DNA from: Mobula hypostoma
Taxonomy: Eukaryota
DNA: 64,000 bases
Assembly (NCBI RefSeq): GCF_963921235.1
Contig: NC_086108.1
Span: forward strand, 38,690,001 to 38,754,000
Direction of reading: 5' to 3'
A program made the position numbers and the translations under genes. Shown piece by piece: positions 25,600 through 60,849 of this stretch; position 1 is the first letter of the stretch; every line of letters begins with the position of its first letter. The notes under the pieces are model-generated. The model worked only from the letters and a program-made list of their open reading frames with translations. It did no database searches and was not told the origin of the DNA.

Positions 25600-26115
25600 T
25601 ATCCTGTCTCACTGCTGCCATCAGGAAGAAAGTACAAGGGCCTTAGTCCCGCACTCCCAGATTCAAGAAACGTTCTGATGAAGCATCTCAGTCTAAAACG
25701 TCAACTGGTTATTCTTTTCCATAGATGCTGCCTGACCAGCTGAGTTCCTCCAGCATTTTGTGTGTGTTACTCTGGATTTCCACCATCTACAGGGTTTCTT
25801 GTCTTCAGAAACAGTTATTACCCTTCAACCATCAGGCTCCTGAACCAGCATGGACGACTTGACTCACCTCAACTCTGAACTTATTCCACAAGCTATGAAT
25901 TCCCTTTCAACAAGTCTACAACTCATGTTCTCAGCATTATTTATTATTTTTATCTGCACATTTTGTCTTATTTTGCGCATTGGTTGTTTATCAGTCCTTA
26001 TGTATTTTTTCATTAATTCTATTGTATTTCTCTGTTCAACTGTGAATGTCTGCAAGAAAACATATCTCAAGCTAATATATGGTGTACTTTGACAAATTTA
26101 TTTTGAACTTTGAAA
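25600..26115 (+). mobile_element. Rex1/Babar-like 3' fragment interrupted by a short PLE 3'-end insert (~25673-25803)
   Basis: CTGCTGCCATCAGGAAGAAAGTAC and TTTGAACTTTGAA tail; insert starts at a decayed hammerhead CTGATGAAGCATCTCAGTCTAAAACGTC. Confidence 0.6.
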
Positions 26116-38000: not shown

Positions 38001-38670
38001 GTCAATATTGGGAAGTTAAAATCTGCTGACCAAATCATCCTAATTTTTTTGCAGTTTAAAGCATTTCTCCTCAATGTCACTTTCTCTGCTAGTTTGTATT
38101 ACCTACAAACTTCTTTAACATGTTCCCTTCATTTAACACAAATTATTACTTTGTAACAGAGATAACAGACTAAGCACTGAACATTATGCAGCTCCACTGG
38201 TAATAACTTTCAGACACAGAAGTATCATTTACTCATGCTTTTGGCCATTAAACCAATTTCACATTCAATTTGTCACTCTCCTTTAGTTTTCTCCTTCCCA
38301 ACCTGCCATGTGTAACCTTGTCAAAAACGTGTAATGAAATCCTGAAAGACTACATCAAACATTACACCATCATTGATCTTGTTTGTTACCTCTTCAAAGA
38401 ATTCTGCCCAATTTGGCAGCACGGCCTGATATCTTTAATTCATCTGTGTCACTCTGAACAGTGGCTTATATGACCCTTAGATTTGACACCATTAATCTAA
38501 CCAACACAAGTTAAACTAATTGGCTTGTATTTAATATATCTCTTCCTGCTTTTTAACATTACACCATTTAACAGTGCTACAATCTTTGAGAACTACAGTA
38601 ATTTTAAGTAACATACATCAAAGTTGCTGGTGAACGCAGCAGGCCAGGCAGCATCTATAGGAAGAGGCGC

Positions 38671-38706
38671 AGTCGACGTTTCAGGCCGAGACCCTTCGTC
38701 AGGACT
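38671..38706 (-). ncRNA. Minimal type I hammerhead ribozyme (PLE)
   Basis: Reverse complement AGTC-CTGACGA-AGG(GTCTCGG)CCT-GAAA-CGTC-GACT. Confidence 0.88.
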
Positions 38707-39001
38707 AACTGAAGGAAGAGTGAGTAAGGGATTTGAAAGCTGGAGGGGGAGGGGGAGATGCAAAATGATAGGAGAAGACAGGAGGGGGAGGGATGGAGCC
38801 GAGAGCTGGACAGGTGATAGGCAGAAGGGGATACGAGAGGATCATGGGACAGGAGGTCCGGGAAGAAAGACGGCGGGGGGGGGTGACCCAGAGGATGGGC
38901 AAGAGGTATATTCAGAGGGACAGAGGGAGAAAAAGAAGAGTGAGAGAAAGAATGTGTGCATTAAAAAGAGTAACAGATGGGGTACGAGGGGGAGGTGGGG
39001 C

Positions 39002-40290
39002 CTAGCGGAAGTTAGAGAAGTCAATGTTCATGCCATCAGGTTGGAGGCTACCCAGACGGAATATAAGGTGTTGTTCCTCCAACCTGAGTGTGGCTTCATC
39101 TTTACAGTAGAGGAGGCCGTGGATAGACATGTCAGAATGGGAATGGGATGTGGAATTAAAATGTGTGGCCACTGGGAGATCCTGCTTTCTCTGGCGGACA
39201 GAGCGTAGATGTTCAGCAAAGCGGTCTCCCAGTCTGTGTCGGGTCTCACCAATATATAAAAGGCCACATCGGGAGCACCGGACGCAGTATATCACCCCAG
39301 TCGACTCACAGGTGAAGTGATGCCTCACCTGGAAGGACTGTTTGGGGCCCTGAATGGTGGTAAGGGAGGAAGTGTAAGGGCATGTGTAGCACTTGTTCCG
39401 CTTACACGGATAAGTGCCAGCAGGGAGATCAGTGGGGAGGGATGGGGGGGACGAATGGACAAGGAAGTTGTGTAGGGAGCGATCCCTGCGGAATGCAGAG
39501 AGAGGCGGGGAGGGAAAGATATGCTTAGTGGTGGGATCCCGTTGGAGGTGGCGGAAGTTACGGAGAATAATATGTTGGACCCGGAGGCTGGTGGGGTGGT
39601 AGGTGAGGACCAGGGGAACCCTATTCCTAGTGGGGTGGTGGGAGGATGGAGTGAGAGCAGATGTACGTGAAATGGGGGAGATGCGTTTAAGAGCAGAGTT
39701 GATAGTGGAGGAAGGGAAGCCCCTTTCTTTAAAAAATGAAGACATCTCCCTCGTCCTAGAATGAAAAGCCTCATCCTGAGAGCAGATGCGGCGGAGACGG
39801 AGGAATTGCGAGAAGGAGATGGCGTTTTTGCAAGAGACAGGGTGAGAAGAGGAATAGTCCAGATAGTTGTGAGAGTCAGTAGGCTTATAGTAGACATCAG
39901 TGGATAAGCTGTCTCCAGAGACAGAGACAGAAAGATCTAGAAAGGGGAGGGAGGTGTCAGAAATGGACCAGGTAAACTTGAGGGCAGGGTGAAAGTTGGA
40001 GGCAAAGTTAATAAAGTCAACGAGTTCTGCATGCATGCAGGAAGCAGCGCCAATGCAGTCGTCGATGTAGCGAAGGAAAAGTGGGGGACAGATACCAGAA
40101 TAGGCACGGAACATAGATTGTTCCACAAACCCAACAAAAAGGCAGGCATAGCTAGGACCCATACGGGTGCCCATAGCTACACCTTTAGTTTGGAGGAAAT
40201 GGGAGGAGCAAAAGGAGAAATTATTAAGAGTAAGGACTAATTCTGCTAGACGGAGCAGAGTGGTGGTAGAGGGGAACTGATTAGGTCTGG
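39002..40290 (-). CDS. 5'-truncated PLE ORF: RT C-terminal half plus GIY-YIG endonuclease (open frame)
   Basis: GVAMGTRMGPSYA, LRYIDD, CKRNKCYTC linker (Neptune-like), VIYCVRCSRCGLLYIGET; frame open upstream of the listed Met to the junction. Confidence 0.9.
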
Positions 40291-40298
40291 ATTAATCT

Positions 40299-41411
40299 AT
40301 GTTCCGTGCCTATTCTGGTATCTGTCCCCCACTTTTCCTTCGCTACATCGACGACTGCATTGGCGCTGCTTCCTGCATGCATGCAGAACTCGTTGACTTT
40401 ATTAACTTTGCCTCCAACTTTCACCCTGCCCTCAAGTTTACCTGGTCCATTTCTGACACCTCCCTCCCCTTTCTAGATCTTTCTGTCTCTGTCTCTGGAG
40501 ACAGCTTATCCACTGATGTCTACTATAAGCCTACTGACTCTCACAACTATCTGGACTATTCCTCTTCTCACCCTGTCTCTTGCAAAAACGCCATCCCCTT
40601 CTCGCAATTCCTTCGTCTCCGCCGCATCTGCTCTCAGGATGAGGCTTTTCATTCTAGGACGAGGGAGATGTCTTCATTTTTTAAAGAAAGGGGCTTCCCT
40701 TCCTCCACTATCAACTCTGCTCTTAAACGCATCTCCCCCATTTCACGTACATCTGCTCTCACTCCATCCTCCCACCACCCCACTAGGAATAGGGTTCCCC
40801 TGGTCCTCACCTACCACCCCACCAGCCTCCGGGTCCAACATATTATTCTCCGTAACTTCCGCCACCTCCAACGGGATCCCACCACTAAGCATATCTTTCC
40901 CTCCCCGCCTCTCTCTGCATTCCGCAGGGATCGCTCTCTACACAACTTCCTTGTCCATTCGTCCCCCCCATCCCTCCCCACTGATCTCCCTGCTGGCACT
41001 TACCCGTGTAAGCGGAACAAGTGCTACACATGCCCTTACACTTCCTCCCTTACCACCATTCAGGGCCCCAAACAGTCCTTCCAGGTGAGGCATCACTTCA
41101 CCTGTGAGTCGACTGGGGTGATATACTGCGTCCGGTGCTCCCGATGTGGCCTTTTATATATTGGTGAGACCCGACACAGACTGGGAGACCGCTTTGCTGA
41201 ACATCTACGCTCTGTCCGCCAGAGAAAGCAGGATCTCCCAGTGGCCACACATTTTAATTCCACATCCCATTCCCATTCTGACATGTCTATCCACGGCCTC
41301 CTCTACTGTAAAGATGAAGCCACACTCAGGTTGGAGGAACAACACCTTATATTCCGTCTGGGTAGCCTCCAACCTGATGGCATGAACATTGACTTCTCTA
41401 ACTTCCGCTAG
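40299..41411 (+). CDS. Inverted second copy of the truncated PLE ORF (RT plus GIY-YIG)
   Basis: 370-aa ORF nearly identical to 39002-40174 (NAIPF vs NAISF). Confidence 0.9.
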   Translation: MFRAYSGICPPLFLRYIDDCIGAASCMHAELVDFINFASNFHPALKFTWSISDTSLPFLDLSVSVSGDSLSTDVYYKPTDSHNYLDYSSSHPVSCKNAIPFSQFLRLRRICSQDEAFHSRTREMSSFFKERGFPSSTINSALKRISPISRTSALTPSSHHPTRNRVPLVLTYHPTSLRVQHIILRNFRHLQRDPTTKHIFPSPPLSAFRRDRSLHNFLVHSSPPSLPTDLPAGTYPCKRNKCYTCPYTSSLTTIQGPKQSFQVRHHFTCESTGVIYCVRCSRCGLLYIGETRHRLGDRFAEHLRSVRQRKQDLPVATHFNSTSHSHSDMSIHGLLYCKDEATLRLEEQHLIFRLGSLQPDGMNIDFSNFR

Positions 41412-41706
41412 GCCCCACCTCCCCCTCGTACCCCATCTGTTACTCATTTTTATGCACACATTCTTTCTCTCACTCTTCTTTTTCTCCCTCTGTCCCTCTG
41501 AATATACCTCTTGCCCATCCTCTGGGTCACCCCCCCCCGCCGTCTTTCTTCCCGGACCTCCTGTCCCATGATCCTCTCGTATCCCCTTCTGCCTATCACC
41601 TGTCCAGCTCTCGGCTCCATCTCTCCCCCTCCTGTCTTCTCCTATCATTTTGCATCTCCCCCTCCCCCTCCAGCTTTCAAATCCCTTACTCACTCTTCCT
41701 TCAGTT

Positions 41707-41742
41707 AGTCCTGACGAAGGGTCTCGGCCTGAAACGTCGACT
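41707..41742 (+). ncRNA. Minimal type I hammerhead ribozyme (PLE); predicted cleavage after C41738
   Basis: Stem I AGTC/GACT, CTGACGA box, stem II AGG/CCT, GAAA box, GTC site. Confidence 0.88.
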
Positions 41743-42730
41743 GCGCCTCTTCCTATAGATGCTGCCTGGCCTGCTGCGTTCACCAGCAACTTTGATGTAT
41801 GTTGCTTGAATTTCCAGCATCTGCAGAATTCCTGTTGTTTGCGTAATTTTAAGTATTTTACTTTACTGCTGCCACACACGAAGAAACTAATTTCATGACC
41901 TATGTGAGTGATGATAAACCTGGTAGTAATATGGGTCTCTATTGTGGACTGAGAGTGGGAAGGGGACAGGGAAAGGGGAATGATGTTTGGAAAAGGGGAA
42001 GGGAGAGGGGAGGGAGCGGGAAGCACCAGAGGGACATTCTGTAATGATGAATAAACCAAATGTTTGTAATCAAATGACCCTGCCTGGTGTCTAGGGCTGG
42101 GTATGTCTGCACCTGTGCCACCCTTTGCCCCTGGCACTCCTTCTCTGCCACCTGTCCCACCCACCATTCGTGGCTCTCTACCCTCACCATTCCTAACATC
42201 CTTTGCTCCCTCAACATTTACAAACTCGCTCTCTCCTCCATGTTGACAAAATAATTGTCTGAACCTCAGCATTTTCTTCACTTGCTAACTTTTAATTAGC
42301 TGGGATGCATTTCAATCATGACTGGCAACTTATTCATATTCAAGGATGCTAAAGATCTTAATACTTTTTCTTTAAGAACATTATCCCATTCAATAAATTT
42401 ATTTGCATCCATCTGAATAACCACACTAGTGTCATCATCCAGTTTGGTGAAAACAGCTGTGAAATATTCTTTGAGATCCTTGGGCTCCATACATGGAAGT
42501 CTTTTTGGTCCATAAAATCATCAACCCTTTCCTTTGTTATCCTCTCACTACATTGTACTTGTAAAATATATTTTGATTTTATTTACCAATTTTTTTTCAT
42601 ACTCCCTATTTTCCTAATTTCCTTTTTAAATCCTCACCTAGATTTACTATACATATTTTCCAGTTTCTGCTATACTAAGCCCTCTGTCTTACAAAACGTT
42701 CCCTTTTTGCCTTGCTATGCCCTCTCTGAC

Positions 42731-43040
42731 ACAGTGGCACAGCCAGCAGAGCCACTGCCTCACACAGCCAGATATGCAAGTTCAATCCTGACACTGGGCG
42801 CCATCTATGGAGTTTGCATATTGTCCCTGTGACCATGGGGGTTTCCTCCACATCCACCAAATGTAGTTGGCAAGTTAATAGGCGACTGTAATTATATGAA
42901 GTATTTAGGTGAGTGGTAGAATCTGGGAGTAGTTGATAAAAATGAGTAGAGAATAAAAAAATAGGATTAATGTGAATGGGTGGTTGATAGTCAGTGTGGA
43001 CAGCGGGCCAAAGTGCCTCTTTCTATGCCGCATCTCTCGG
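42731..43040 (+). mobile_element. V-SINE-like element
   Basis: tRNA-like head with GTTCAATCC B-box; GGAGTTTGCAT.TT.TCCCTGTGACC core. Confidence 0.65.
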
Positions 43041-43503
43041 TGACACTACAGCCGACCACAAGTGGGATTCAGCTCCTTCCATTGCTCAAAATAATTTGTT
43101 GGAAGTTTGCAAAATGACCTTCAAGGTGAGTTGCAAAGCTACCTTTTTGGTAAATTAATCTGTTTTTAAATTTCAAGGTATATACAGGCTTGAAGCTTTC
43201 ATCTATGGTCACCGTTCCACTCGGGCCCAACAGGTGAATAAATGTCTAAGATCCAATGAGGGTAAGAACATTAAAAGGTACCATTCAGGCATTTTAGAAA
43301 TTGAAGTTGACAACAGCAGATTGAAAAACAGGATAAAATAAAATGAGGGAAAAGAAACTTAAGGGAAAAGTATGAAAGGAACATGTGATTTTAAAGAAAT
43401 TGCATAATTATTTTAATTTTATTTAAAATATCGCAAGATTTCTTTCCCCATAAACTTCAAATATGATTATTTAAATTTCAAATTCTGCAGGTGTTTTACT
43501 TAC

Positions 43504-43609
43504 TTCTGCCAGACTTTTTCTCCCAAGTGAACACTTCTGTAATGAACACTGAGATGATCCCTACGACCAAAACACTTTCCACATTCTTCACATTGATGAG
43601 CTTTTTCTC
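43504..43609 (-). CDS. ZBTB41: ZBTB41 coding exon (106 nt, C2H2 finger)
   Basis: [38 protein letters not shown] 43611-43610, GT 43503-43502; phase 1->2. Confidence 0.95.
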
Positions 43610-44691
43610 CTTTTGGATAAAACAAAAAAAATGGATTATATAAATTCCAGCTGATTTAAAATGTCTCTTCCAAAGCTGACCAGAGTTAAATGGAAAAACA
43701 ACAAAAACTTGTAAATAAAAAATACATATATTGTGAAATGTAGTCAAGTGACATAAAAATCCTTTACATTAGTATTTACCAGAGAGAACACGGAGGATAA
43801 GGAGATCAGTGCCGAGTGTATTGATATGCTTAGACATTTCGAGGTAAAGGAGGAGGTAGTATAGGATCAATAAGGAGCATTAAGGTGGATAAATCCCCAT
43901 GGCCTGATGGGACATACCCCAGGTTATTGCGAGAGGCAAGGGTTCAGATTACTGAGGCCGTAACCAATATCTTCATGTCCACTCTAGACACATGCGATGT
44001 CCCAGTGGACTATTGAGTAGCTAATATTGTTCAAGTAATCCAAAAGGAAACCAGGGTTAATCATGGAAACTATAGACTGGTGAATCTCATGCCACAGATA
44101 AGGAAGTTAGTGGAGAGAATTCTTAGGTTTAGGATTTATGAGCAATTGGAAAACCATGGCCTAATTAGGGAGAGTCAGCATGGCTTTGTGCGGGACAAGT
44201 CATGTCTTACTAAATTGACTTATTTTTTGGACGAGGTGACAAGGGTGATTGATGAAGTTAGAGCGGTGGATGTTTGCGTGGATTGTACTAAGGTGTTTGA
44301 CTAGGTCCCTCATGAGAGGCTCATCCAGAAGATTAACATGCATAGGATCCATGGTGATTGGCCATTTGGATTCAGTACTGGGTTGCACATAGAAGACAGA
44401 AGGTAGTGGTCAAAGGAACTTATTCCAGCTGTAAGTCTGTGACTAGTGGTGTCCAACAGGGATCTATACTGGAACCTCTGGTGTTTGTAATGTTATATAA
44501 GTGACCTGGATGAACTTGTAGATGGGTGGGTCAGTAAGTCTGTAGATGATACAGAGGTTGGCGGTGTTGTGGATAGCATAGAAGACTAGCAAAGAATATA
44601 GTGGGATACAGACCAGTTACAGATATAAGCAGAGAAATGGCAGATTGAGTTTAACCCGGACAAATGCAGCTTGGTAGGTCAAATGTCGGTA

Positions 44692-46445
44692 CAGGTGTCT
44701 CCCGCTTTTCGAACTTTCGCTTTACGAAACCTCACTGTTACGAAAGACCTACATTAGTACCCTGTTGTCGCTTTCAGAAGGTGTTTTCACTGTTACGATA
44801 AAAAAGCAGCGCGCGCCCCAAGCAGCCGCTCTCCCAAGATTCGGAACTGCGTTCTCACCGGCATTGCTTAAACACGTGCCTGTGAGCAGTCGTTTGCAAG
44901 ATGAGTTCTATGGTATCGATAAAGCCTAAAAGAGCTCGTAAGGGTGTTACACTTAGCGTAAAACTAGACATAATTAAGCATTTCGATCATGGCGAATGAA
45001 GTAAGGAGAAAGTGAGTTTGGCTTGTGGAAGCCGACAAACATGATGGTGAAGAGGTTTTGGCATCCCATGACCAAGATCTGATAGATGAAGAGCTGATGC
45101 AATTGGAAGAAAAAAGGATAACAATCAAAACCAAATGCAGTAGCGAACTGAACGTGAAGCAACTGCATGAGATTTTTGCTGCAATGATAAAGTACAACTT
45201 TAATTTTGAAAGGGTACGTAGGTTTAGGGGATATTTGCAAGATGGTTTGAGTCCTTACAAAGAACTGCGTGATAGAAAAATGCGCAAGGCTCAGCAGTCA
45301 AGCAAGCCTTCCACATCAGCCACAGCAGATGACAAACCTCGACCTTCGACATCGAGGCGGGCAGAGATAGAAGATGACCTGCCTGCCCTAATGGAAACAG
45401 ACGACAAGATGACACCCCAGTGTCCCACCACCCCAACCCCAGGCCACGGACAGATACCAATTCGCAGACAATGCAGCGGTAGCCGGGAGGGACACAGCAC
45501 ATCTTTAAGAAAAAAGCTGAAATAAACATGCTAATTAGTTAGGTGCCACCCGACATGTAATTGTCGGTCCAGATCAGAGACGACGCAATCGGAAGTTGGC
45601 ACTGATCTGGACCGACAACTACATGCCGGGCAGCACCTAATTAATTAAAGTTGCTGGTGAACGCAGCAGGCCAGGCAGCATCTATAGGAAGAGGCGCAGT
45701 CAACGTTTCAGGCCGAGACCCTTCCTATAGATGCTGCCTGGCCTGCTGCGTTCACCAGCAACTTTGATGTATGTTGCTTGAATTTCCAGCATCTGCAGAA
45801 TTCCTGTTGTTTGCACCTAATTAATTAGCATGTTTGTTTCGGCTTTTTTCTTAAAGATGTGCTGTGTGCCTCCCGGCTACCGCTGAACCCCTGCATGCTT
45901 CGCAGATCAGTATCGGTGGGTGGCCCGGAGGGTGGGGGCCACTGCACCACCCCAGCTTGCGACGACTCAGCCTAACACACCATCATCAGTGTGCTCAGCG
46001 CTGTCTTCCGATTCCCGTAAGTGATACTACACTGTACATACGTTATTTCTACTTTATATAGGCTGTGTATTTTTACATGTTATTTGGTATGATTTGGCAG
46101 CTTCATAGCTTAAAGGTTACTGGAGTGCGCTTGCGCTGTGTTTTTGCCAACAGCGCTTGTGTGAGATTTTCGCTACGGAGAACAGTGCAGTAATGATTGT
46201 GGAACAGTATTTCTACTTTATATAGGCTGTGTATTTATCATATCATTCCTGCTTTTACTATATGTTACTGTTGTTTTAGGTTTTATGTGTTATTTGGCAT
46301 GATTTGGTAGGTTATTTTTGGGTCCGCGAACGCTCACAAAATTTTCCCATATAAATAAATGATAATTGCTTTTTCGCTTTACGACATTTCGGCTAAGGAA
46401 CCGTTTCATAGGAACGCTCTACCTTCGGATGGCGGGGCAAACCTG
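44692..46445 (+). mobile_element. Internally deleted Tigger/pogo-like DNA transposon
   Basis: TA flanks; imperfect TIRs CAGGTGTCTCCCGCTTTTCGAA / TTCGGATGGCGGGGCAAACCTG; N-terminal HTH-psq remnant KRARKGVTLSVKLDIIKHFDHGE (from 44901) joined to a C-terminal remnant (ORF 45025-45525). Confidence 0.85.
45647..45814. mobile_element. ~165-bp PLE mini fold-back (perfect 45-bp stem, partial hammerhead)
   Basis: Stem 45647-45691/45721-45765; PLE tail; TSD GCACCTAATTAATTA (45633-45647, 45813-45827). Confidence 0.9.
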
Positions 46446-47673
46446 TACACTATTAAGAGCAAGACCCTTAACAGTATTGATGAGCAGAGAGATTTTGGGT
46501 CCAAGTTCATAGTTTCTTGAAAGTAGCAGCACAGGCTGATGGAGTCGTTAAGAAGGCATATGGCATGCTTGCCTTTATTAGTTGAGACACTGAGTTCAAA
46601 AGGCAGGAAGTTCTATTGTAGCTTTATAAAACTCTAGTCAGGTTGCATCCAGAATTCTGCATACAGTTTAGGTCGCCCCCTTATAGGGAGGATGGTGAGG
46701 CCTTGGAGAGGGTGCAGAAGAGTTTTACCAGGATGCTGCCTGGATTAGAAGGCATGTGCTATCACGAGCCACACTCAGGTTGGAGGAACAACACCTTACA
46801 TTGCATCTGGGTAGCCTTCAACCTGACGGCAAGAACATTGACTTCTCTAACTTCTGTTAATGCCCCTCCTCCCCTTTGAACCCCATCTGTTATTTATTTA
46901 TTTATTTATTTATTCATTCCTTTTTTTCTATCTCTCTTTTTTCTCCCTCTGTCCCTCTCACTATAACTCCTTGCCTGCTCTCCCCCATTCTTTCTCCCTA
47001 GGCTTCCTGTCCCATGATCCTCTCCCTTCTCCAGCCTTGTATTCCTTTTGCCAATCAACTTATACACCTCAGAGGTGATCTCTCTGAGGTAGTATAAGAT
47101 TATGAGAGGCACAGCGAGAATACAGACAGTATTTTTTCCCCCAGAGTTGGAATGTCTCATACCAGAGGACATGCATTTAAGGTGAGAGAGGGTACGTTCA
47201 AAGAAAGTGGGGGCAAGATTTTTTTTTTTTACAGAGAGTGGTGGGTGCCTGGAATATACTGCCCAGGGAGCAGGTGGAGGCAGATACATTAGGGACTTTG
47301 AAGAGACATTTAGATTGGCACATGAATGTGAGGCAAAGGGAAGGATATGGATATAATGTAGACAAAAGGGATTAGTTTAGTTGGTTATTTGATTATTAAT
47401 AAAATTGGTTTAGAACAACATTGTGGGCTGAAGGGCCTGTTCTTGTGTTGGACTGGTCTGTTTTATGTTTTTTATTCATAAAGTTAATTCAGCTACAGAA
47501 GCCAAGAAATTAAAAGCTGTCTTCAAGTGAAATCACGTGAGGCATGTACCGTATAGCCTACATTATAATAAGGGCAAACAACAGGAATTCTGCAGATGCT
47601 GGAAATTCAAGCAACACACATCAAAGTTGCTGGTGAATGCAGCAGGCCAAGCAGCATCTATAGGAAGAGGCGC

Positions 47674-47709
47674 AGTCGACGTTTCAGGCCGAGACCCTTC
47701 GTCAGGACT
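47674..47709 (-). ncRNA. Minimal hammerhead ribozyme (PLE)
   Basis: Identical 36-nt motif on the minus strand. Confidence 0.88.
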
Positions 47710-48675
47710 AACTGAAGGAAGAGTGAGTAAGGGATTTGAAAGCTGGAGGGGGAGGGGGAGATGCAAAATGATAGGAGAAGACAGGAGGGGGAGGGATAGA
47801 GCCGAGAGCTGGACAGGTGATAGGCAAAAGGGGATACGAGAGGATCATGGGACAGGAGGTCCGGGAAGAAAGACGGGGGGGGGGGTGACCCAGAGGATGG
47901 GCAAGAGGTATATTCAGAGGGACAGAGGGAGAAAAAGGAGGGTGAAAGAAAGAATGTGTGCATAAAAATGAGTAACAGATGGGGTACGAGGGGGAGGTGG
48001 GGCCTAGCGGAAGTTAGAGAAGTCAATGTTCATGCCATCAGGTTGGAGGCTACCCAGACGGAGTATAAGGTGTTGTTCCTTCAACCTGAGAGTGGCTTCA
48101 TCTTTACAGTAGAGGAGGCCGTGGATAGACATGTCAGAATGGGAATGGGATGTGGAATTAAAATGTGTGGCCACTGGGAGATCCTGCTTTCTCTGGCGGA
48201 CAGAGCGTAGATGTTCAGCAAAGTGGTCTCCCAGTCTGCGTCGGGTCTCACCAATATATAAAAGGCCACATCGGGAGCACCGGACGCAGTATATCACCCC
48301 AGTCGACTCACAGGTGAAGTGATGCCTCACCTGGAAGGACTGTTTGGGGCCCTGAATGGTGGTAAGGGAGGAAGTGTAAGGGCATGTGTAGCACTTGTTC
48401 CGCTTACACGGATAAGTGCCAGGAGGGAGATCAGTGGGGAGGGATGGGGGGGACGAATGGACAAGGGAGTTGTGTAGGGAGCGATCCCTGCGGAATGCAG
48501 AGAGAGGGGGGGAGGGAAAGATGTGCTTAGTGGTGGGATCCCGTTGGAGGTGGCGGAAGTTACGGCACCTGTCCAGCTCTCGGCTCTATCCCTCCCCCTC
48601 CTGTCTTCTCCTATCATTTTGCATCTCCCCCTCCCCCTCCAGCTTTCAAATCCCTTACTCACTCTTCCTTCAGTT

Positions 48676-48711
48676 AGTCCTGACGAAGGGTCTCGGCCTG
48701 AAACGTCGACT
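48676..48711 (+). ncRNA. Minimal hammerhead ribozyme (PLE)
   Basis: Identical 36-nt motif. Confidence 0.88.
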
Positions 48712-51700
48712 GCGCCTCTTCCTATAGATGCTGCTTGGCCTATTATAATAAGGGTCTACTTTATGTTTTAGTAACACGTCGTTGCATGCGCTATTAAGTG
48801 CGTATTGATCTGTATGTGTGTGCCAAGTTCGGACTCTACCAGTTAAGAACCATGAAACTTAGTTCCCGTCTCCAGCATTTTTATTGATAACATAGTTGTG
48901 TAAACAGGCCACATACCCAACAAATCGGCGACGAGAATTATGAACCCACATCTTATCGGAACACCGTGTTTCAGTTGATAACGAAACTTGGAGAAGAGAG
49001 AGAAGGGAGATGAAAAGGAGCGACTCATGCATCTAGACGGAGTGCGCTCGTTGCACTAGCAAAAAGGACACGTGAGTCAAGTGGAATGTGCAGAGACTGC
49101 AAGGAGCTAGCTAAAAAGAAAACAAGGAAAAAACGGGACTAAATTAACATAACAAAGATGGCGATGATTGGAACCATTACAGCATTTGATAGTGGCATTG
49201 AAAACTGGATAACTTACACTGAAAGAGTGGAGTTATATTGTGATGCTAACGGTGTTAATGATGAAAAGAAAACCAACGTCTTACTCAGTATTATGGGAGC
49301 ACCATAAGGCCTGCTACGGAGCTTGTTAACCCCTGAAAAGCCAGCTGACAAAACGTTCAAGCAAATAGTAGACACTCTCCAACAGCATTTAAACCCCAAA
49401 CCACTGGTCATTGCTGAAAGATTTAAATTTCACTAATGGAAACAGAGCAAAAATGAAAGCATTTCTGAATATTGTGCTGAATTGCGCAAATTATCAGAAC
49501 ATTGTCAATTTGGAGCTGGTCTATCGGACGCATTGAGGGACAGGTTAGTGTGTGGCATGCACTGTGAAGCCACACAGAAGAAGCTCCTATGTGAAAAAGA
49601 CCTTACATTAGAGAAGGCGCTGAACATTGCAATATCATTGGAAACAGCAGCAAGGAGTGCTTCAGAGATACAACAAAAATCTGTGGAATATGCTACAAAT
49701 AAAATGTCACTGAACAGAAATGAAGGAAAGAAATGTTATCGTTGTGGGAACATGTCACATGACCCTGAGGACTGTTGGTTTAAAGACAAAGAATGCAGAA
49801 ACTGTGGCAAACAGGGCCACATTGGCTGAGTATGCAAAGCTAGTAAACAGCAGAAAAAGGACAAAATACAGAGAAACAAGAAACCCCAGAAAGGAAAACA
49901 GAACAATGTACACAAAATGGAAGAAAGCAGTTCTGATGAAAACAACTCAGACAAAAGTAAATTGTCTTGTCTGCAACTTCACAGCATGAAAGAGACAAAT
50001 GATCGAATAGTAATATGGATCACTCCACAAGTGGCAGGCGTGAGACTGAAGATGGAGTTTGACACAGACTCAGCTTTAACAGTAATCTCTGTACACGACT
50101 ACAATTGACTGTTTTCTCACATACCTCTGAAATGAACTAAGCTACTGTTAAAGACTTACACAGGACAGAGAGTGCGTCCCAAAGGTAAAATTAAAGTGAC
50201 AGTGACCTATGGAGACAAAACACAGCAGCTGAACCTCTATGTACTGAAAAATGGAGGACCACCACTGCTGGGACGTGAATGGCTCAGGAAAATCCAGTTG
50301 GACTGGCACACCATCAAGGCACTAGTTGTGTCAGCAAAGGAGGGCAGCAAGGCTACATCTGAGAGACTGTCACAAATACTTGCTGACTCTGAGGGAGTGT
50401 TCATGAAAGGAATAGGAACACTTCAGGGCATGAAGGCAAAGATTGAGATTGAGGAAAATGCATGTCCAAAATTTCACAAAGCCAGACCAGTGCCATATGC
50501 AATCCGTCCTACAGTAGAGGCAGAGCTGAAAAATCTGGAGCAGACCGGGGTCCTGATAAAGGTAGATTGGAATGAATGGGCCGTGCCTATTGTTCCAGTG
50601 ATGAAGAAAACCTCCAGCACAAAACCAAGAAAACCAAGCAAGGTGCGCATATGTGGAGACTTTAAAGTGACTGTTAACCCAGTTCTCCGCACAGTACAGT
50701 ATCCTCTACCTCGTATTGAAGACATCTCTGCTTCCCTGTCAGAAGGGGAACATTTCACAAAAATCGATTTGGCCCAGGCTTATCTCCAAATGGAAATTGA
50801 AGAAGCATCCAAGAAATACCTGACAATAAATGCACACAAAGGACTTTACCAGTACAACAGGTTGGTGTTTGGGATAGCCTCAGCGCCTGCAATCTGGCAA
50901 AGGGCAATGGACCAGGTCCTGCAGGGGATTTCAGGGACTCAGTGTTACCTGGATGACATCATTGTCACCAGCAAAGATGATGACGAACATCTTTCTAACC
51001 TTGAACATGTGCTCACCAGGTTACGAGAATATGGGCTCAGAGCTAATCGACAGAAGTGAGTTTTTCAAAAAGGAAATCTCATACTGTGGACATGTGATCA
51101 ACAAGGATGTCTTACACGTCTCAAGACAAGATAAAAGCGGTAATTAAGGCACCACCACCTGAAAATGTGTCTCAACTGAGAGCATATCTTGGACTAGTGA
51201 ACTACTACCGCAAGTTCTTGCCTAACTGATCCAGTCCTATACTCACTAAATGCACTATTACAGACAGGGACACAATGGAAGTGGACTGAGAGGTGTGATA
51301 AAGCGTTTCAAGAAACTAGAAGACTCATAACTTTGGAAGGGGTGCTCACGCACTTTGACCCCTCCTTACCAACCCGACTGGCTTGTGATGCCTCACCCCA
51401 TGGGATAACAGCTGTGTTTTCACACAGGTTTCCAGATGGTTCAGAAAGACTAACAGCCTTTGCCTCAAGAACACTAACTTCAGCTGAACGCAACTACGCA
51501 CAGATTGACAGAGAGGCCCTAAGCCCCGTGTGGGGAGTCAAGAAATTCAGTCACTACCTGTATGGTCAAAAGCTTACCCTGCTGACTGACCACCAGCCTC
51601 TCGTGTCAATTTCCAATTCAAGAAAAGGCGTTCCAGTGATGACAGCACAAAGGCTGCAGTGATGGTCTCTTTTCTTAGGAGGTCACAGGTACGACATTGA

Positions 51701-53756
51701 ACACAAGGGGACCAAGCAACACGGCAATGCAGATGGTTTGTCACGTTTACCACTGCCAACTTCAGAGATAACTACACAAATGGATTCAGCAAAGGTCTTT
51801 CACACAAGAATAGTTGAACAATTACCAGTGACAAACAGCCCCATTGAAAGGGAAACATGCAATGACCCTATGTTGTCTAAAGTGTATGATACCATGGTGA
51901 AGGGATGGCCAGCGTGTGGTAACACACTGTTTCTAGCCTTCTCTGCAAGGAAGGAGCAGTTGTCAGTGTGTCGAGGAACACCAATGTATGGTTCACGAGT
52001 TGTGATTCCTCCCAAGCTACGCACCAGAATGCTGGAGGAACTGCATAAGGGGCACCTGGGTACCGTGAAAATGAAAAGTCTTGCCCGTGCCTATGTGTGG
52101 TGGCCAGGAATCCATAAACAGATTAAGGACTTGACCAAGAACTGCTCTGGATGTCAAAAGATCCAGAACACACAAGCCCCTCTCCATCCATGGGAGTGGC
52201 CCTCATCACCATGGCAAAAGTGCACATCAACTTTACTGGACCATTAATGGACGTTATCTTTTTAATCGCCATCGATGCACATTCCAAATGGCCAGAGGTC
52301 ATCAAAATGAAAACAACCACATCAGAAAAGACCATTACAGTTCTGAGGACCATGTTTGCCAGGAATGGCATACCAGAACAAATCTGCACAGACAAAGGAC
52401 GAAAATTTGTCTCTGAAGAATTCCAAAGTTTTGTGAAGAACAATGGAATCAAGCACTTTACATCTGCTCTTTACCATCCATCCACAAATGGTTTGGCAGA
52501 AAGATTTGTATAGACATTCAAGAAAGCCATCAAGGCAATGGACAGTGAAAATCGACCACTACAACGCAAGATAGACAACTTCCTCCTTGTCTATCATAAT
52601 GCAGTACATGTAACCACTAATCAGACTCCAGCGATGATGTTTCTGAACAAGAACCTGAAGTCCCGCATGGATCTTCTCAAACCAGATGTACGGCGTGATG
52701 TGGAGAACAGACAGTTCAAACACTTGAATGCTAAGTCAACACGGAGCTTCAGTGTGCGACAGTTAGTTCTTGCACATGATTACTGGACTGAAAAGTGGCA
52801 GCTGGGTACAGTTTCCACCATGGATGGGCCACTGATGTATACAGTGAAGGTGGGAGAGAACTTATGGAGACGTCATGTGGACCAAATCCTGGATGCTTAG
52901 GTGAAAAACACAACAACACCTTGTCGGACTCTCCTGACATAGAAGCAAGCACTCCTGATGTGACCACATCGGCCTCATCTACAGGTAAGCCTGTCATCAG
53001 TGCTGATGACCCACCTGAGGTACCTATGGAGACTCACTCCCCAAAGCAAATGTTTCAGGACAGACGTTACCCAGAGAGGCAGAGAAGACCTGCCCAGAGA
53101 CTTGAGTTATAAATGGGTCTTAGACCAAAAGTTTAAAAAAAAGCTCGTTATAATTTGATATTATTAAGTCACTTTGTTATAATTTGTAAGTAAATGGTAG
53201 GCACTTGTATGTTAAGGGTACACATATTTGTTTAGCATAGTGCCCCAGTAAAAAAAAAGTTGATACACTATTAAAATAAAAGGGGAGGAGTGTACTGTAT
53301 AGCCTACATTATAATAAGGGTCTACTTTATGTTTTAGTAACACATCATTGCATGCGCTATTAGGCGCGTATTGATCTGTATGTGTGTGTCGAGCTCGGAC
53401 TCTAACAGTAAAGAACCATGAAATTTAGTTCACGTCTCCAGCGTTTTTATTAATAACATAGTTGTGTAAACAGGCCACATACACAAGGCAGAAACTAAAA
53501 ATTTCAAAATGTAAAGGCGATAAAGTGAGGAAAAATGTAATTAATATTAGTGATTTAAAGCATTACTAATTTGTAGGTAAAACATTTTTGACAAAGTCCC
53601 ATATGGGAGGCTAATCTGGAAAAGTTGAGTCACATGGCATTCAGGATGAGGTAGTAAATTAGATTCAACTTTGGCTTAGTGGGAGAAGCTAGACAGTAAT
53701 AGTTGATGGCTGTTTCTTTGACCCAGTACCCAGAGTCCTATGCCCAGTGGTAATCA

Positions 53757-54330
53757 AACTTTAAAGTAAATTCATTATCAAAGTACATTCTGTATGTCAT
53801 CCACTTACAACCTTAAGATCCATTTTCTTGTGGGCATTCATAGTAAATGTAGGAAACCCAACAAAATCAACGAAAGACTGCAACAGAATGGATAAACAAC
53901 CAATGCGCAACAAACCGTGCAAATACAAAAAGAATAATAAATAGTAAATAAAAAAAAGCAATAAATATCGGGAGCGTGAGATGAAGAGTCCTTGAAAGTG
54001 AGTTAGTAGGAACAGTTCGCTGATGGAGAGAGTGAAGTTGAGTGCAGTTATCCCCACTGGTTCAAAGGCCTGATATCTGACAGGTATTAACTGATCTTAA
54101 GCCTGGTGATGTGGGTCCTGAGGCTCCTGTACCTTCTTCCTGATGCCAGCAGTGAGAAGAGAGCATGACCTGGATGGTGAGGGTCCATAATCATGGATGC
54201 AGTTTTCCTGTGACAGTGCCATGGGTAGATGTGCTTAATGGTGAGAAGGAATAGACTGTCATAGACTGGACTGTATCCAGTACATTTTGTAGGCTTTTCC
54301 ATTCAAGGGCATTAGTGTTTCCATATCAAT
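53757..54330 (-). mobile_element. Rex1/Babar-like 3' fragment
   Basis: DPHHPGHALFSLLASGRRYRSLRT (ORF 54087-54302) plus 3' UTR. Confidence 0.75.
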
Positions 54331-54385
54331 GTCACAGGAACCGGAGCTGTTGTTTGCCATCTATGTAATAATTTGGATGGTACCT

Positions 54386-55530
54386 AAATGGATTTTAGTA
54401 AGGCATTTGACAAGGTTCCACACGGTAGGCTTATTCAGAAAGTCAGAAGGCATGGGATCCAGGAAGTTCGGCCAGGTGCATTCAGAATTGGCTCGCCTGC
54501 AGCAAGCAGAGGGTCGTGGTGGAGAGAGTACACTCGGATTGGAGGGTTGTGACTAGTGGTGTCCCACAAGGATCGGTTCTGGGACCTCTGCTTTTCGTGA
54601 TTTTTATTAACGACCTGGATGTGGGGGTAGAAGGGTGGGTTGGCAAGTTTGCAGACGACACAAAGGTTGGTGGTGTTGTAGGTAGTGTAGAGGATTGTCA
54701 AAGATTGCAGAGACATTGATTGGATGCAGAAGGGGGCTGAGAAGTGGCAGATGGAGTTCAACCCGGAGAACTGTGAGGTGGTACACTTTGGAAGGACAGA
54801 TTCCAAGGCGGAGTACAAAGTAAATGGCAGGATACTTGGTAGTCTGGAGGAGCAGAGGGATCTGGGGGCACATGTCCATACATCCCTGAAAGTTGCCTCA
54901 CAGGTAGATAGGGTAGTTAAGAAAGCTTATGGGGTGTTAAGCTTTCGTAATTCGAGGGATAGCGTTTAAGAGTCGCGGGGTAATGATGCAGCTCTATAAA
55001 ACTCTGGTTAGGCCACATTTGGAGTACTATGTCCAGTTCTGGTCGCCTCACTATAGGAAGGATGTGGAAGCATTGGAAAGGGTACAGAGGAAATTTACCA
55101 GGATGCTGCCTGGTTTAGAGAGTATGCATTATGATCAGAGATTAAGGGAGCTAGGGCTTTACTCTTTGGAGAGAAGGAGGATGAGAGGAGACATGATAGA
55201 GGTGTACAAGATAATAAGAGGAAAAGATAGAGTGGATAGCCAGTGCCTCTTCCCCAGGGCACCACTGCAAGAGGACATGGCTTTAAGGTAAGGGGTGGGA
55301 AGTTCAAGGGGAATATTAGAGGAAGGTTTTTTACTCAGAGAGTGGTTGGTGCGTGGAATGCACTGCCTGAGTCAGTGGTGAAGGCAGATACACTAGTGAA
55401 ATTTAAGAGACTGTTAGACAGGTATATGGAGGAATTTAAGGTGGGGGGGTGTTATATGAGAGGTAGGGTTCAAGGGTCGGCACAACATTGTGGGCCGAAG
55501 GGCCTGTACCATGCTGCACTATTCTAGGTT
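54386..55530 (+). mobile_element. 5'-truncated CR1 LINE (second subfamily)
   Basis: VTSGVPQGSVLGPLLF..KFADD, LVRPHLEY..WSP, FFTQRVVGAWNALP. Confidence 0.88.
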
Positions 55531-55539
55531 CTATATTGT

Positions 55540-56455
55540 GGTAAATTCGATCAATTTGTGGTTAATACCAAGATTAGAGGTATAATGAACAGCGAGGAAA
55601 GCTATCAAACTACTGCAGAACAATCTAGACCTGTTGGAAAAATAGGATCAAAAATGGCAGAAGGAATTTAACTGTGATGTGTTGCAGTTTTGGAGGACAA
55701 AGCAGTGTAGGACGTACACAATGAACAGCAGGACACTTAGGAGCGAAAGGGGTCTGGAACTACAGAAAGCATCCCTTGGAGGTAGCAGCACAGGTAGGTA
55801 GGGTCGTAAGGAAAGCTTCTGGTACATTGACCTTTATAAATCAAGAGTTCTGAGTACAGGAGTTGGGATGTTATATTTAAGTTGTATAAGATGTTGGTGA
55901 GGCCAAATTTGGAATATTGTTTGCAGTTCTGGTCACCTACCCACAGGAAAGATGTAAATAAGATTGAAATAGTACAGAAAAAAATTACAAGAATGTTGCC
56001 AGGCCCTGAAAACCTGAGTCATAGGGAAAGGTTGAATGGATTAGGACTTTATTTCCTGGAAAGTAAGAGAATGAGGGAAGATTTGATAGAGGTACACAAA
56101 ATTATGAAGAGGTATAAATAGGGTTAATGCAAGCAGGCATTTTGCACTGATGTTTGGTGAAACTTGAACTGGAGTTCATATATTAAGGGTGAAAGGTGAA
56201 AAATTTGAGGGGAATCTGAGGAAAAACTTCGTCGCCCTAGAGTGTGGTGCAAGTGTAGAACAAGCTGCCAGTAGAAGTAGTGGATGCAAGTTCGATTGTA
56301 TAATTTAAGAGAAGTTTAGATAAGTACATGCATGGCAGGGGTATGAAGGCCTATGGTCCAGGAGCAGGTCGAAGGGACTACACAGAATAACTGTATGGTA
56401 GCAACCAGATAGGCTGAAGGGCCTGTTTCTGAGCTGTAGCACTCTATGACTCTAA
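55540..56455 (+). mobile_element. Older CR1 3' fragment (probably continuous with 53585-53725)
   Basis: LVRPNLEYCLQFWSP; CTCTATGACTCTA tail. Confidence 0.75.
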
Positions 56456-56531
56456 TCAGAAATCCAGCTGACAGCTACGAAGGCAAAGAGGGAATCACAA
56501 AGGCATCTGTTTCTCCATCAGAATATGTTAC

Positions 56532-56638
56532 CTGAATGGGTTCTTCTATGTTTGGTGAGATGGTCATGGCGAATAAAAGTTTTCCCACATTCTTCACATT
56601 CATAACGCTTGTCATCATGATGTACACGGAGATGTAAT
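56532..56638 (-). CDS. ZBTB41: ZBTB41 coding exon (107 nt, C2H2 fingers); upstream exons lie beyond the right edge
   Basis: LHLRVHHDDKRYECEECGKTFIRHDHLTKHRRTHS; AG 56640-56639, GT 56531-56530; phase 2->1. Confidence 0.95.
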
Positions 56639-57287
56639 CTAGTAACAAAATATTAATTTATAAAAGTGCTTCAAGCAACATTTCTTGCTACTTTATTATC
56701 AACCATATAAAATGGAAAAATAACTCGCTGATTATATGAATTCATTTTGTTGAGAAAAATTTCAATAACTAGAATAAATTTAAGTAATTTGCATAACCTA
56801 TCTGCTGAAAATACTCCCTAAAAAGTTGCCAATACCACTGAAAGTTTAGAAAGCAATCTTGTGCTTCTACTTAAAAGCAGCAACTAAGAATGTATAAAGA
56901 TGGTGTTTTTGAGCAATAAAATCGTCCCATGACAAAGACACTGAAGAAGACATTGACTATAACTCAGCATTCAACATTATCATCTCCTTGAAACCAACAC
57001 TGTAGTTATGCTTGTTGATGATATCACTGTTACTGGTTGAAACAAAGTCGACAATGAAATGGCATATAAGAGGGAAATTGAAAATCTGTTTGAATGATAC
57101 CAGAACAATACGTCTAACTCAATATCCATGGAACCAAACAGCTAATTATTGATTATAGGAGGAGGAAGTCAGAGGTCCAGGAGCCACTCCTCATTAGGGG
57201 GCATAATCATATCAGAGAATCTGTCCTGGGACCAACACAAGAAGGAATGACAAGCACCACCTCTACTTTTTTAGAAATTTGCAGATT

Positions 57288-58673
57288 CAACATTCCACTG
57301 CCACGGGCCTGAATGACTTCCCTCCAGTTACATTCACCCCCATCATTGCAAAGTGCTTTCAGAGACTGGTTCTATCACATCTGAAATCCTGTCTGCCCAC
57401 TACCCAGGACCCCCATCAATTTGCCAATCACACCAACAGGTCAACAGAGGATGCCATCTCCACAGCACTTCACTCTGCCCTGACCCACCTGCACAGCCCC
57501 AACTCTTACGTCAGAATGCTGTTCATTGACTTTAGTTCGGCATTCAATACTGTGATCGCCTCAAAGCTGATCACCAAACTTCACCAGCTTGGTATCAGCA
57601 TATCCCTCTGCAATTGGACCTTGGACTTTCTGACTAACAGACCCCAATCAGTTCAGTTAGACAACCTCTCCTCCTCCACTCTCACCCTGAACACCGGCGT
57701 GCCTCAAGGCTGTGTGCTGAGCCCTCTTCTATACTCCCTTTTCACCTATGACAGCGGTCCTGTACATGGTTCTAACTCCATAATCAAGTTCGCAGACGAC
57801 ACTACGGTGGTTGGTCTGATCAGAGGGGATGACGAGACAGCCTAGAGAGACAAGGTCCAGCACCTGGCTGCGTGGTGTGCCAACAACAATCTGGCCCTTA
57901 ACACCCAGAAGAACATGGAGATCATTGTGGACTTCAGGCATGCTAGGAGTCACAGTCACGTCTCCATCTACATCAACGGAACTGTAGTAGAGCGTGTATC
58001 AAGCTTCAAATTCCTTGGTGTCCACATTTCTGAGGATCTCACCTGGTCCCTGAACTTCTCCATCCTGATCAAAAAGGCGCAAAAGCGCCTTTATTTCCTG
58101 CAGCGCATGAAGAAAGCTCACCTCTGTTCCAGGATGCTGACGGACTTTTACTGCTGTACCATTGAGAGCATACTCACCAACTGCATCTCAGTGTGGTATG
58201 GCAACTGTCCCCTATCGGACCGCAAAGCACTCCAGCAGGTGGTGAAAACTGCCCAGCGGATTATCGGCACCCAATTGCCCACCATTGAGAACATCTACCA
58301 TAAACGCTGCCTGGGCAGGGCAAAAAGCATTATCAGGGATGCATCTCACCCTAACCATGGACTTTTTACTCTCCTCCCATCAGGTAGGCGCTACAGGAGC
58401 CTCCGCTCCCGCACCAGCAGGCACAGGAAGAGCTTCTTCCCTGAGGCTGTAACACTGCTGAACCTCACATCACAGCGCTAAGCAGTATTGCATCTGTATT
58501 GTACTGTCTCAGTACTTTTATATTTCTGTGCTGTAGCATTTTTTTTATTTGCAGTTATTTTGTAAATAACACTATTCTTTGCACTTCTGGTCAGATGCTA
58601 ACTGCATTTCATTGGCTTTGTATCTGTACTCGGCACAATGACAATAAAGTTGAATCTAACCTAATCTAATCTA
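57288..58673 (+). mobile_element. Young 5'-truncated Rex1/Babar LINE (RT) inside an older Rex1 relic
   Basis: [41 protein letters not shown]; (AATCT)n tail. Confidence 0.9.
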
Positions 58674-60041
58674 ACATGTACGTATTTTGACAATAACTTT
58701 ACTTTCACTTTGATATAACCACATAGACTTATAGAGCTTCACAACGGTGTCACTTTTAAGATACACAAGTTTATTTTAAACAAAGCTAATTTACTGTCAA
58801 TCGATTATTCAGATTTACCATCGCAACATTTCTACTTTGCTAGTTAAAAATTAAAGCTACCAACTATAACTGAAAAATGCCACCACCAACTGCAACGCAC
58901 TGTAAATATTAACTTTACAAATGTGTGAGATCCTAGTAAACAATCAGTGGATGTCAGTTACAAACCTATTTTTAACCATGTGAGGTTTAAAAATCTGCAA
59001 CATTGAACCTTGTTATAGCACTGCGGGGAAATCATCATTCTGGAGGAAGTCAGACAGCATCTCTGGAGGGAAATGTCTCTGACACCCTGCATCAGGACTA
59101 GAAAGAAAGCAGATACCTGGCATAAAAGAGTGTGGGGAGGAGTTAAAGCAAGAAGGATAAGAGAGGTAAGAAGGGGAGGGGATTAAGAATGATGAAAGAG
59201 GGCTCGGTGGTGATAGGCAGAACTGACAAAGGGCTGAAGAAGATGGAATCTGAATGGGGAAGATAGTGGACCATGAATGAAAGAGGAGGAGATGAGGAGG
59301 GGAACCAGAGGGAAGAATGTGTAGGTGATGAGCACATCAAAAGAGTGAGGGAGGGGAAAGGGGTGATGGGACCAGTGGGATAAGGTAGAACAAAAGATGT
59401 AGGTCAGGGAGGGAAGAGAAACAGAGAGGAGTGGTTATTGAAAATTATGTTCTTGCCATCAGGTTAGAGACTGCCAAGGCATAATTCAAGGTCTGTTCCT
59501 CTAATCTGCATCTTGTATCAATTTGGCAGTAGACAAGGCTGTGAGCAGACAAGTCTATGTTATAATAGGAAGTGGAATTAAAATGGTTAGCCACTGGGAG
59601 AGTATGGCCAGTATGGTGAATGGAGCAAAGGTACTTAACAAAGTGATTCCTCCAAACTGCATCAGATCTCGCCAACATCCATTATCCATTACATCATTTC
59701 AAGTTTAGCCCTGGTAGTTTCCAGCCTGATGGCATGAACATCAATTTCTCTAATTTCCACTAACCACTTCTCCATTCCCTGCCCTCCCCAATTACTTTTG
59801 TTTACCTATATCTCACCAGCCCCATCACCCCTTCTCTTTCCCCTCCCTGGCTCTCTCAATCTGCTCATCACCCACAGATTCTTCCTTCCATTTCCCCTCA
59901 TCTCCAACCTTTATTGTATAGTCCAATGTACTCTCCCATCAGATTCCATCTGCCTATAATCCCCAGCTGTTTACATCATTCCCATTCTTCCCCATCCCCA
60001 CTTGCCTATCCTCCCCCAATCACATGGATTCACCCATCATT

Positions 60042-60217
60042 CATAAAAGTTGCTGGTGAACGCAGCAGGCCAGGCAGCATCTCTAGTCCTGACGAAGGGT
60101 CTCGGCCTGAAACGTCGACTGCACCTCTTCCTAGAGATGCTGCCTGGCCTGCTGCGTTCACCAGCAACTTTTATGTGTGTTGCTTGAATTTCCAGCATCT
60201 GCAGAATTCCTGTTGTT
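60042..60217. mobile_element. ~172-bp PLE mini fold-back with an intact hammerhead in the loop
   Basis: Perfect 45-bp stem 60042-60086/60131-60175; TSD TTCACCCATCATTCA (60029-60043, 60216-60230). Confidence 0.9.
60085..60120 (+). ncRNA. Minimal hammerhead ribozyme (PLE)
   Basis: AGTCCTGACGAAGGGTCTCGGCCTGAAACGTCGACT. Confidence 0.88.
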
Positions 60218-60849
60218 CACCCATCATTCACCAGCTCTTGCTTCAGCCCCTCAACTGAGCCTTTTATAACAGCTCTCTACTCTCCTTCTAATCCTGATAA
60301 AGGGGTTTAACCCAAGACATCGGCTGTCCTTTCCCTCCAAAGATGCTTCCCCACCTGTTGAATTAGTTCAGCATTAAATTACCCACCCTGCCACGCCGCC
60401 AACCCCCACTACTTTATCACTACCTGTCAGTCACCTTACGTAGCCACTCCTGCGCCTAGCATCAATTTATGAACGTGCAATCAATGTATATAAGCTATCT
60501 TATGTATTTATATTTATTGTGCTTTTCTATTATCATTGCGTTTTTTTAATCTTATTGTGCTTTTGTGCTGCATCAGATCCAGAGTAACAATTAATTCGTC
60601 TCCTTTAGACACATGTACTGGAAATGACATTGTACAATCTTGAATCTTGAATTTTGAGTGTTGGTCCAGATTTCCAGCATCTACAATCTTTCTTGTTTCT
60701 CCATGACATCATCACTGCTGGTTTACATCATGACCAGTTAATAATCTTCATATCTGGTATATGCTATTCAATGCACTGGGCCACAGCTACATCAGGAATT
60801 TTATTTTGTTTTATTTGCTGATCTAGGCATTCATGGATAGGCTGGATTT

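Follow-up and report, generated by a model that had tools for sequence, protein, structure and literature searches.

Fold-back insertions of a young Penelope-like element in Mobula hypostoma almost always carry a single tail

Introduction

Penelope-like elements (PLEs) typically insert with an inverted 5'-truncated copy and a tail of 30-40 nt, often at one end only (Arkhipova et al. 2013, PMC3846280; Craig et al. 2021, PMC8557442; here and below, papers are cited for the accessible passages of their text). In these passages, the fold-back shape is given without counts, and it is explained by antisense-template self-priming or by resolution mediated by the endonuclease (EN). PAc, a Poseidon element of Anolis carolinensis, nicks and extends both strands in vitro, and its reverse transcriptase (RT) has two internal start sites, which delimit the tail (PMC11167929; Frangieh et al. 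2024). The architecture as well as the two-strand, two-site initiation have already been published (PMC3846280, PMC8557442, PMC11167929), and both PMC8557442 and PMC11167929 list the origin of tandem and inverted PLE insertions among the open questions. Here, we analyzed a stretch of 64,000 nucleotides from Mobula hypostoma (NC_086108.1, positions 38,690,001 to 38,754,000; hereafter the window), which contains four fold-back insertions of a young PLE family, and followed the family through the genome.

Results

Self-BLAST of the window detected four copies of the young family, and all four were fold-backs (insertions A to D; Table 1). Their target site duplications (TSDs) all differ (13, 15, 13 and 15 bp), in line with the claim of the initial annotation that the insertions are separate. 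As it had also described, each insertion combines one tailed arm with an inverted arm that falls short of the terminus. When element positions are counted from the last base of the tail (0; negative numbers lie 5' of the tail end), the inverted arm meets its TSD at -39 (A), -49 (B), -70 (C) and -46 (D). In insertions A and B, the 5' reach of the tail-less arm exceeds that of the tail arm. The target of insertion C is present once in an empty paralogous repeat at 53285-53340. An assembly artefact was rejected on the grounds of the distinct TSDs, the unequal arms, this empty site, and thousands of similar structures.

Mini fold-backs were retrieved genome-wide using sequence patterns that included a 6-nt tail probe. 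The 7,530 mini fold-backs contained 6,751 tail arms, and both arms were tailed in just 30, compared with 1,513 predicted under an independent choice of the two arms. The probe was absent from 809 mini fold-backs, by our estimate roughly the number expected from mutation. When deeper anchors were used, 5,619 mini fold-backs were recovered, and 4,908 tail arms were present among them. Fold-backs with two tail-less arms are therefore rare, although tail-less simple arms made up 20 of 64 arms in a sample chosen independently of the tail. A fold-back thus almost always consists of one tailed and one tail-less arm, and arm ends fall into two zones, at 0 and at -35 to -47. A literature search, whose coverage excluded older subscription papers and the supplementary figures of the PAc study, yielded no count of this one-tail asymmetry.

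Individual copies were classified by hand at the first 100 tail matches, all on contig C1 up to 8.1 Mb. In the 54 fold-backs, the lengths of the two arms were correlated (rho 0.78), and all 17 tail arms of more than 200 nt had partners of more than 200 nt (6 expected). The 5' reach of the inverted arm exceeded that of the tail arm by more than 10 nt in 23 of the 54, lay within 10 nt of it in 19 (7.4 expected), and was shorter in 12. The 23 longer arms argue against the inverted arm simply being copied from the cDNA of the tail arm. The arms overlap from -40 inwards, which differs from the non-overlap of L1-type inversions. Overlapping arms and priming from both target strands, as proposed in the initial annotation, were supported. 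The TSD also resembled the element sequence beyond the end of the second arm: at positions 4-8, the match was 0.43 versus 0.31 (0 of 2,000 permutations, n=65), and at positions 1-3 it was 0.60 versus 0.29, a value inflated by the TSD-calling procedure. At the tail end, the match at positions 4-8 was weaker (0.38 versus 0.32, p=0.005, n=79).

Within insertions, the two arms differed at 278 of 12,451 sites (2.2%). Minor alleles of the tail arm were common to the partner arm in 90 of 212 cases (16 expected). At non-CpG lineage sites, the arms agreed at 280 of 319 positions, whereas 300 permutations gave a mean agreement of 0.52 and a maximum of 0.64; the agreement was 90/96 in short fold-backs and 190/223 in long ones. 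Arms are thus more alike within than between insertions, as had been claimed. The variants that had been regarded as private to single insertions turned out to be common polymorphisms, with frequencies in tail arms of 37/96 (T at -76), 17/36 (T at -224), 39/94 (G at -86), and 11/100 (T at -48).

Quantification of the insertion types did not yield the uniform picture seen in the window. An adjacent inverted arm was present at 55 of the 100 tail matches, which represent 54 insertions, and absent from 45, among them one tandem, one complex fold-back, and one copy with an inverted arm 389 nt away. A TSD of at least 9 bp flanked 34 of these 45. Fold-backs therefore accounted for 54 of 99 tail-anchored insertions. 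TSDs of 13-15 bp were found in 40 of 49 fold-backs and in 21 of 30 simple copies (TSDs below 11 bp and two 25-bp candidates are omitted from this tally), and TSDs were 68% AT. The tail-independent sample comprised the first 64 of 100 listed internal-anchored matches: 35 arms belonged to fold-backs or complex inversions, 20 were tail-less simple arms, and 9 were tailed arms without a partner, one of them clipped by the locus edge. Once tail-less simple copies are counted, and the 35 arms are halved, the fold-back share is about 38% of insertions. At shares of 0.38-0.55 the probability of four fold-backs in four insertions is 0.02-0.09, and the composition of the window was therefore local luck. 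Three outcomes are common: fold-back, simple tailed insertion and simple tail-less insertion. Inspection by eye of the simple insertions (44 tailed, 20 tail-less) for remnants of a lost arm revealed one likely case. Hence, the view that every insertion is a fold-back, and that this is the default product, did not survive. About half of the refutation that the initial annotation had named beforehand came true: simple copies are common, but the arms are not equally alike within and between insertions.

The arms of insertion A encode the end of an RT, the linker CKRNKCYTC, and a GIY-YIG domain. Matches to RVT_1 in a longer copy (L123; E=2.4e-4) and to GIY-YIG in an arm of insertion A (E=3.9e-4) were both just under Pfam's cut-off. 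DKG, SLYT and YIDD motifs are present in the family translations, and a CCHH motif is present as well, its two Cys lying between GIY and YIG (GVIYCVRCSRCGLLYIG) and His residues coming after them. PLEs with an endonuclease (EN+) are described to carry such a CCHH motif, and a CX2-5CxxC motif in the RT-EN linker to be shared by Neptune and Nematis and absent from Penelope and Poseidon (PMC8557442); CKRNKCYTC conforms to this motif. Judged from sequence, these features support the assignment to an EN+ GIY-YIG PLE with a Neptune-type linker, a type common to Neptune and Nematis, and the initial annotation was right in this respect. Exact matches in the genome numbered 31,306 for a 32-mer of the tail, 58,714 for an internal 32-mer, 5,836 for a 28-mer at about -1720, and 4, in one haplotype only, for a 25-mer immediately past the tail. 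Tail arms had a median divergence of 1.3% from the column majority (n=97). The family is young and has at least 31,000 tail copies. Older relatives with 72-82% identity lie in the window at 13066-13445, 25672-25792, 46767-47024, and 59447-59791, with no evident inverted partners.

A type I hammerhead-type motif spans -136 to -99 and matches the description of PLE hammerheads in PMC4209133. It is intact in both arms of A, both arms of C, and the tail arm of D, and insertion B is without the core. Core and helices match in the 123 copies examined, among which no covariation was observed because the family is too young. An Rfam search returned no hammerhead match, only chance matches to microRNA hairpins. 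Most short arms among the 44 simple tail arms stop at -126 to -154. None of the 44 stop at -103/-104, and hammerhead cleavage was therefore rejected as the cause of the 5' stop. We also examined 148 arms carrying a -118 to -105 anchor, a set to which 20 loci selected for being mini fold-backs contributed and in which stops at the cut site would go unseen; 61 of these arms extend beyond -190, and of the remaining 87, 35 end between -133 and -138, on the 5' strand of helix I. CAG/TAG acceptors are present near -137, and TTAGTCC at -137 fits the initiator consensus. The arm stops make it likely that the RNA 5' end lies near -135. A cap-derived extra G was looked for at -134/-135 of the arms and was not seen. 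Four aligned sequence runs consisted of contigs, and no RNA ends were visible in them.

A natural partial tandem (L137; C1:7978500-7988400, minus strand) has a unit of 3,510 bp. Its upstream tail continues into the next unit, showing that the tail is an internal site and not the true 3' end of the element; the downstream unit stops at -25 without a tail. The first in-frame ATG, located by eye in this copy, lies 34 nt beyond the tail; the computed translation of the frame begins at +43. The tail had been taken for the 3' end of element and RNA, and priming had been placed near that end. Both views have to be revised, as both sites are internal and lie just before the next ORF start. A partial tandem forming pseudo-LTRs (pLTRs), a tail, and an inverted truncated copy, as described for EN+ PLEs, are all found in the family. 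The two units of L137 differ by 3.4% over the shared 965 bp, such that one read-through RNA could carry two pLTR haplotypes. At L137:4303-4900, a contig of run X1, which is only guessed to be RNA, connects a GTGAGT donor-like site (-734) with a CAG acceptor (-137) that sits just before the hammerhead; an intron of D. virilis Penelope ends at the 5' side of helix I (PMC4209133).

Two further repeats were noted in the window. Insertion B lies inside an imperfect palindrome (45474-45885, 66% self-inverted). The palindrome is part of a longer repeat resembling a DNA transposon or MITE, which in turn is surrounded by degraded LINE-like sequence. A direct repeat of 2.4 kb with 87% identity occupies 9118-11590 and 15074-17487.

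Table 1. Features of the four fold-back insertions, in window coordinates
Feature	Position	Strand	Remarks
A, left TSD	38598..38610	.	13 bp
A, tail-less inverted arm	38611..40291	-	about -1717 to -40
A, open frame in tail-less arm	39002-40291	-	429 aa: RT C-terminal part, CX4CxxC linker, GIY-YIG
A, tail-bearing arm	40294..41842	+	about -1548 to 0
A, open frame in tail-bearing arm	40296-41411	+	371 aa with GIY-YIG
A, hammerhead-type motif, type I	41706..41743	+	5-bp helix I, CUGACGA core, 3-bp helix II, GAAA, palindromic ACGU loop
A, predicted hammerhead cut	after 41738 (-104)	+	predicted activity
A, putative second priming zone	41796..41808	+	-35 to -47, where most tail-less arms end
A, "tail"	41804..41842	+	between the two putative priming zones; tail end is the first zone
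A, right TSD	41843..41855	.	13 bp
B, TSD copies	45633..45647 left / 45813-45827 right	.	15 bp
B, tail-less inverted arm	45648..45724	-	-126 to -50
B, tail-bearing arm	45721..45814	+	-93 to 0
C, TSD copies	47562..47574 left / 48742-48754 right	.	13 bp
C, tail-bearing arm	47574..48565	-	-992 to 0
C, tail-less arm	48566..48741	+	-245 to -70
D, TSD copies	60029..60043 left / 60216-60230 right	.	15 bp
D, tail-less inverted arm	60044..60086	-	-89 to -47
D, tail-bearing arm	60084..60217	+	-136 to -3

Discussion

We favor, with a probability of roughly 0.58, a coupled double priming, in which both nicked strands would prime on the same RNA, each at its own internal site, the two sites being exclusive and separated by about 40 nt, and the cDNAs would run to the same 5' end and be joined head to head. 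The PLE enzyme would likely nick both target strands 13-15 bp apart. The two DNA ends would then probably be loaded onto one RNA at internal start zones about 40 nt apart, yielding one tailed and one tail-less arm. Both cDNAs would extend in the same direction as far as a common stop, frequently at about -135, the 5' edge of the hammerhead, and end joining would connect them. Retention of only one cDNA would leave a simple insertion, either tailed or tail-less. Double priming on one RNA is suggested by the near-strict tail asymmetry, the correlated arm lengths, the shared lineage alleles, and the partial overhang match. The in vitro extension of both strands by PAc from two internal starts also speaks in its favor (PMC11167929). 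More tentatively, the two sites on the single RNA may be mutually exclusive, with the second tuned by partial overhang pairing and the two cDNAs made in tandem; the tail, the inverted pLTR and 135-nt hammerhead mini-elements, as run-offs to the transcript 5' end, might then all be products of one intermediate.

Several points weigh against coupled double priming. In PMC11167929, as far as its text reports, PAc showed in vitro neither a strand difference in start site nor homology to the cut DNA, whereas a coupling is proposed and a weak pairing is observed here. The putative RNA 5' end is placed by the arm stops, and unequal arms could stem from later deletion at palindrome centres. The genome-wide counts cover mini fold-backs only, and hand classification covers the first 8 Mb of C1 only. 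A credible TSD was found for only 7 of the 20 tail-less simple arms. Lastly, 5 of 17 long fold-backs contain more discordant lineage sites than mutation or background divergence allows (p<0.01), which could reflect two templates, template jumps or later conversion.

These discordant arms would be readily explained if an asymmetric protein dimer held two transcripts that mostly stem from one source locus, one subunit starting at the tail end and the other about 40 nt upstream. The palindromic loop of the hammerhead would perhaps pair the two transcripts with each other. For PAc, a dimeric state is predicted (PMC11167929), and PLE hammerheads have been proposed to act as dimers (PMC4209133). We nevertheless regard two RNAs as unlikely, because extra asymmetry would be needed to reach 30 of 7,530, short fold-backs agree at nearly all lineage sites, and the excess of arm pairs stopping within 10 nt includes coincidences such as -631/-631 and -1899/-1897.

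Somewhat less probable still is a snap-back, in which one cDNA would fold onto itself and serve as the template of the second arm, or self-priming of an antisense RNA would occur, as proposed in PMC3846280, with later palindrome-centre deletion making the arms unequal. Shared alleles, correlated lengths and the single tail would all be accounted for together, and many junctions contain overlaps of 1-6 nt or fillers. Yet the inverted arm is frequently the longer one, at times by more than 800 nt (46 versus 902), and discordant arms cannot be mutual copies. Tail-less first strands are common, yet none of the 20 tail-less simple arms was paired with a shorter tail-less one, and mini fold-backs without the tail probe amount to 13% at most. 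In addition, no clear increase in asymmetry accompanied greater divergence between the arms (rho 0.19, p=0.22, n=44).

Inheritance of whole fold-backs from palindromic source copies, or homogenisation of the arms by gene conversion after insertion, is very improbable: one junction, -928/-2749, does recur at two C1 loci, but exact copies of it number no more than 2 genome-wide, so that palindromic master copies were rejected, the 53 resolved junctions are mostly different, and the arms of an insertion differ by 2.2%. The two loci with this junction, L099 (C1:397077-400759) and L139 (C1:1823810-1827400), lie 1.4 Mb apart and differ in their alleles; in one of them both ends are tailed and a TSD is missing, and the other combines a single tail with a 14-bp TSD. 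Another pair, L041 (C1:2768215) and L219 (C1:3245274), one tailed and one tail-less, has a common 5' stop at -1467 and an identical 14-nt flank, possibly through 5' transduction or conversion.

The canonical EN+ PLE unit, with 5' truncation, partial tandem pLTRs, inverted truncated copy, tail, and TSD (PMC3846280, PMC8557442), is the same in the present family; the pLTR hammerhead of the canonical unit has a candidate counterpart here. Pen2a_Av, with an inverted pLTR that is 37 bp shorter and a 31-bp tail, resembles the fold-backs described here. The TSDs of 13-15 bp differ from the 8-10 bp of the A. vaga examples in these papers. For PAc, the likeness extends from two-strand nicking and extension and the two tail-bounding starts, which correspond to the putative priming zones at both tail ends here, to the AT-rich targets, and the PAc template is an uncleaved hammerhead RNA (PMC11167929). 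In contrast, PAc belongs to another clade and has no CX2-5CxxC linker, and its start sites lie inside the ORF, whereas here they lie before the first ATG. Inverted products are not discussed in the searched text of PMC11167929.

With its tens of thousands of young copies, the family lends itself to the study of PLE insertion. Three constraints can be checked in the existing in vitro system: two-tailed fold-backs are 50-fold scarcer than predicted, the lengths of the two arms are correlated, and the overhang matches the RNA in part. The lasting value lies in the near-strict one-tail rule, which makes the mechanism of PLE inversion testable. L1 twin priming was reportedly described by Ostertag and Kazazian in 2001. 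Its inverted segments show hardly any overlap, and the position of the second site varies. Here, in contrast, the two primer starts would be no more than about 40 nt from each other, and the overlap of the arms is nearly complete. The likeness to L1 twin priming lies in both target ends priming one RNA, as proposed here, and in a head-to-head inversion inside the TSD (PMC2246262).

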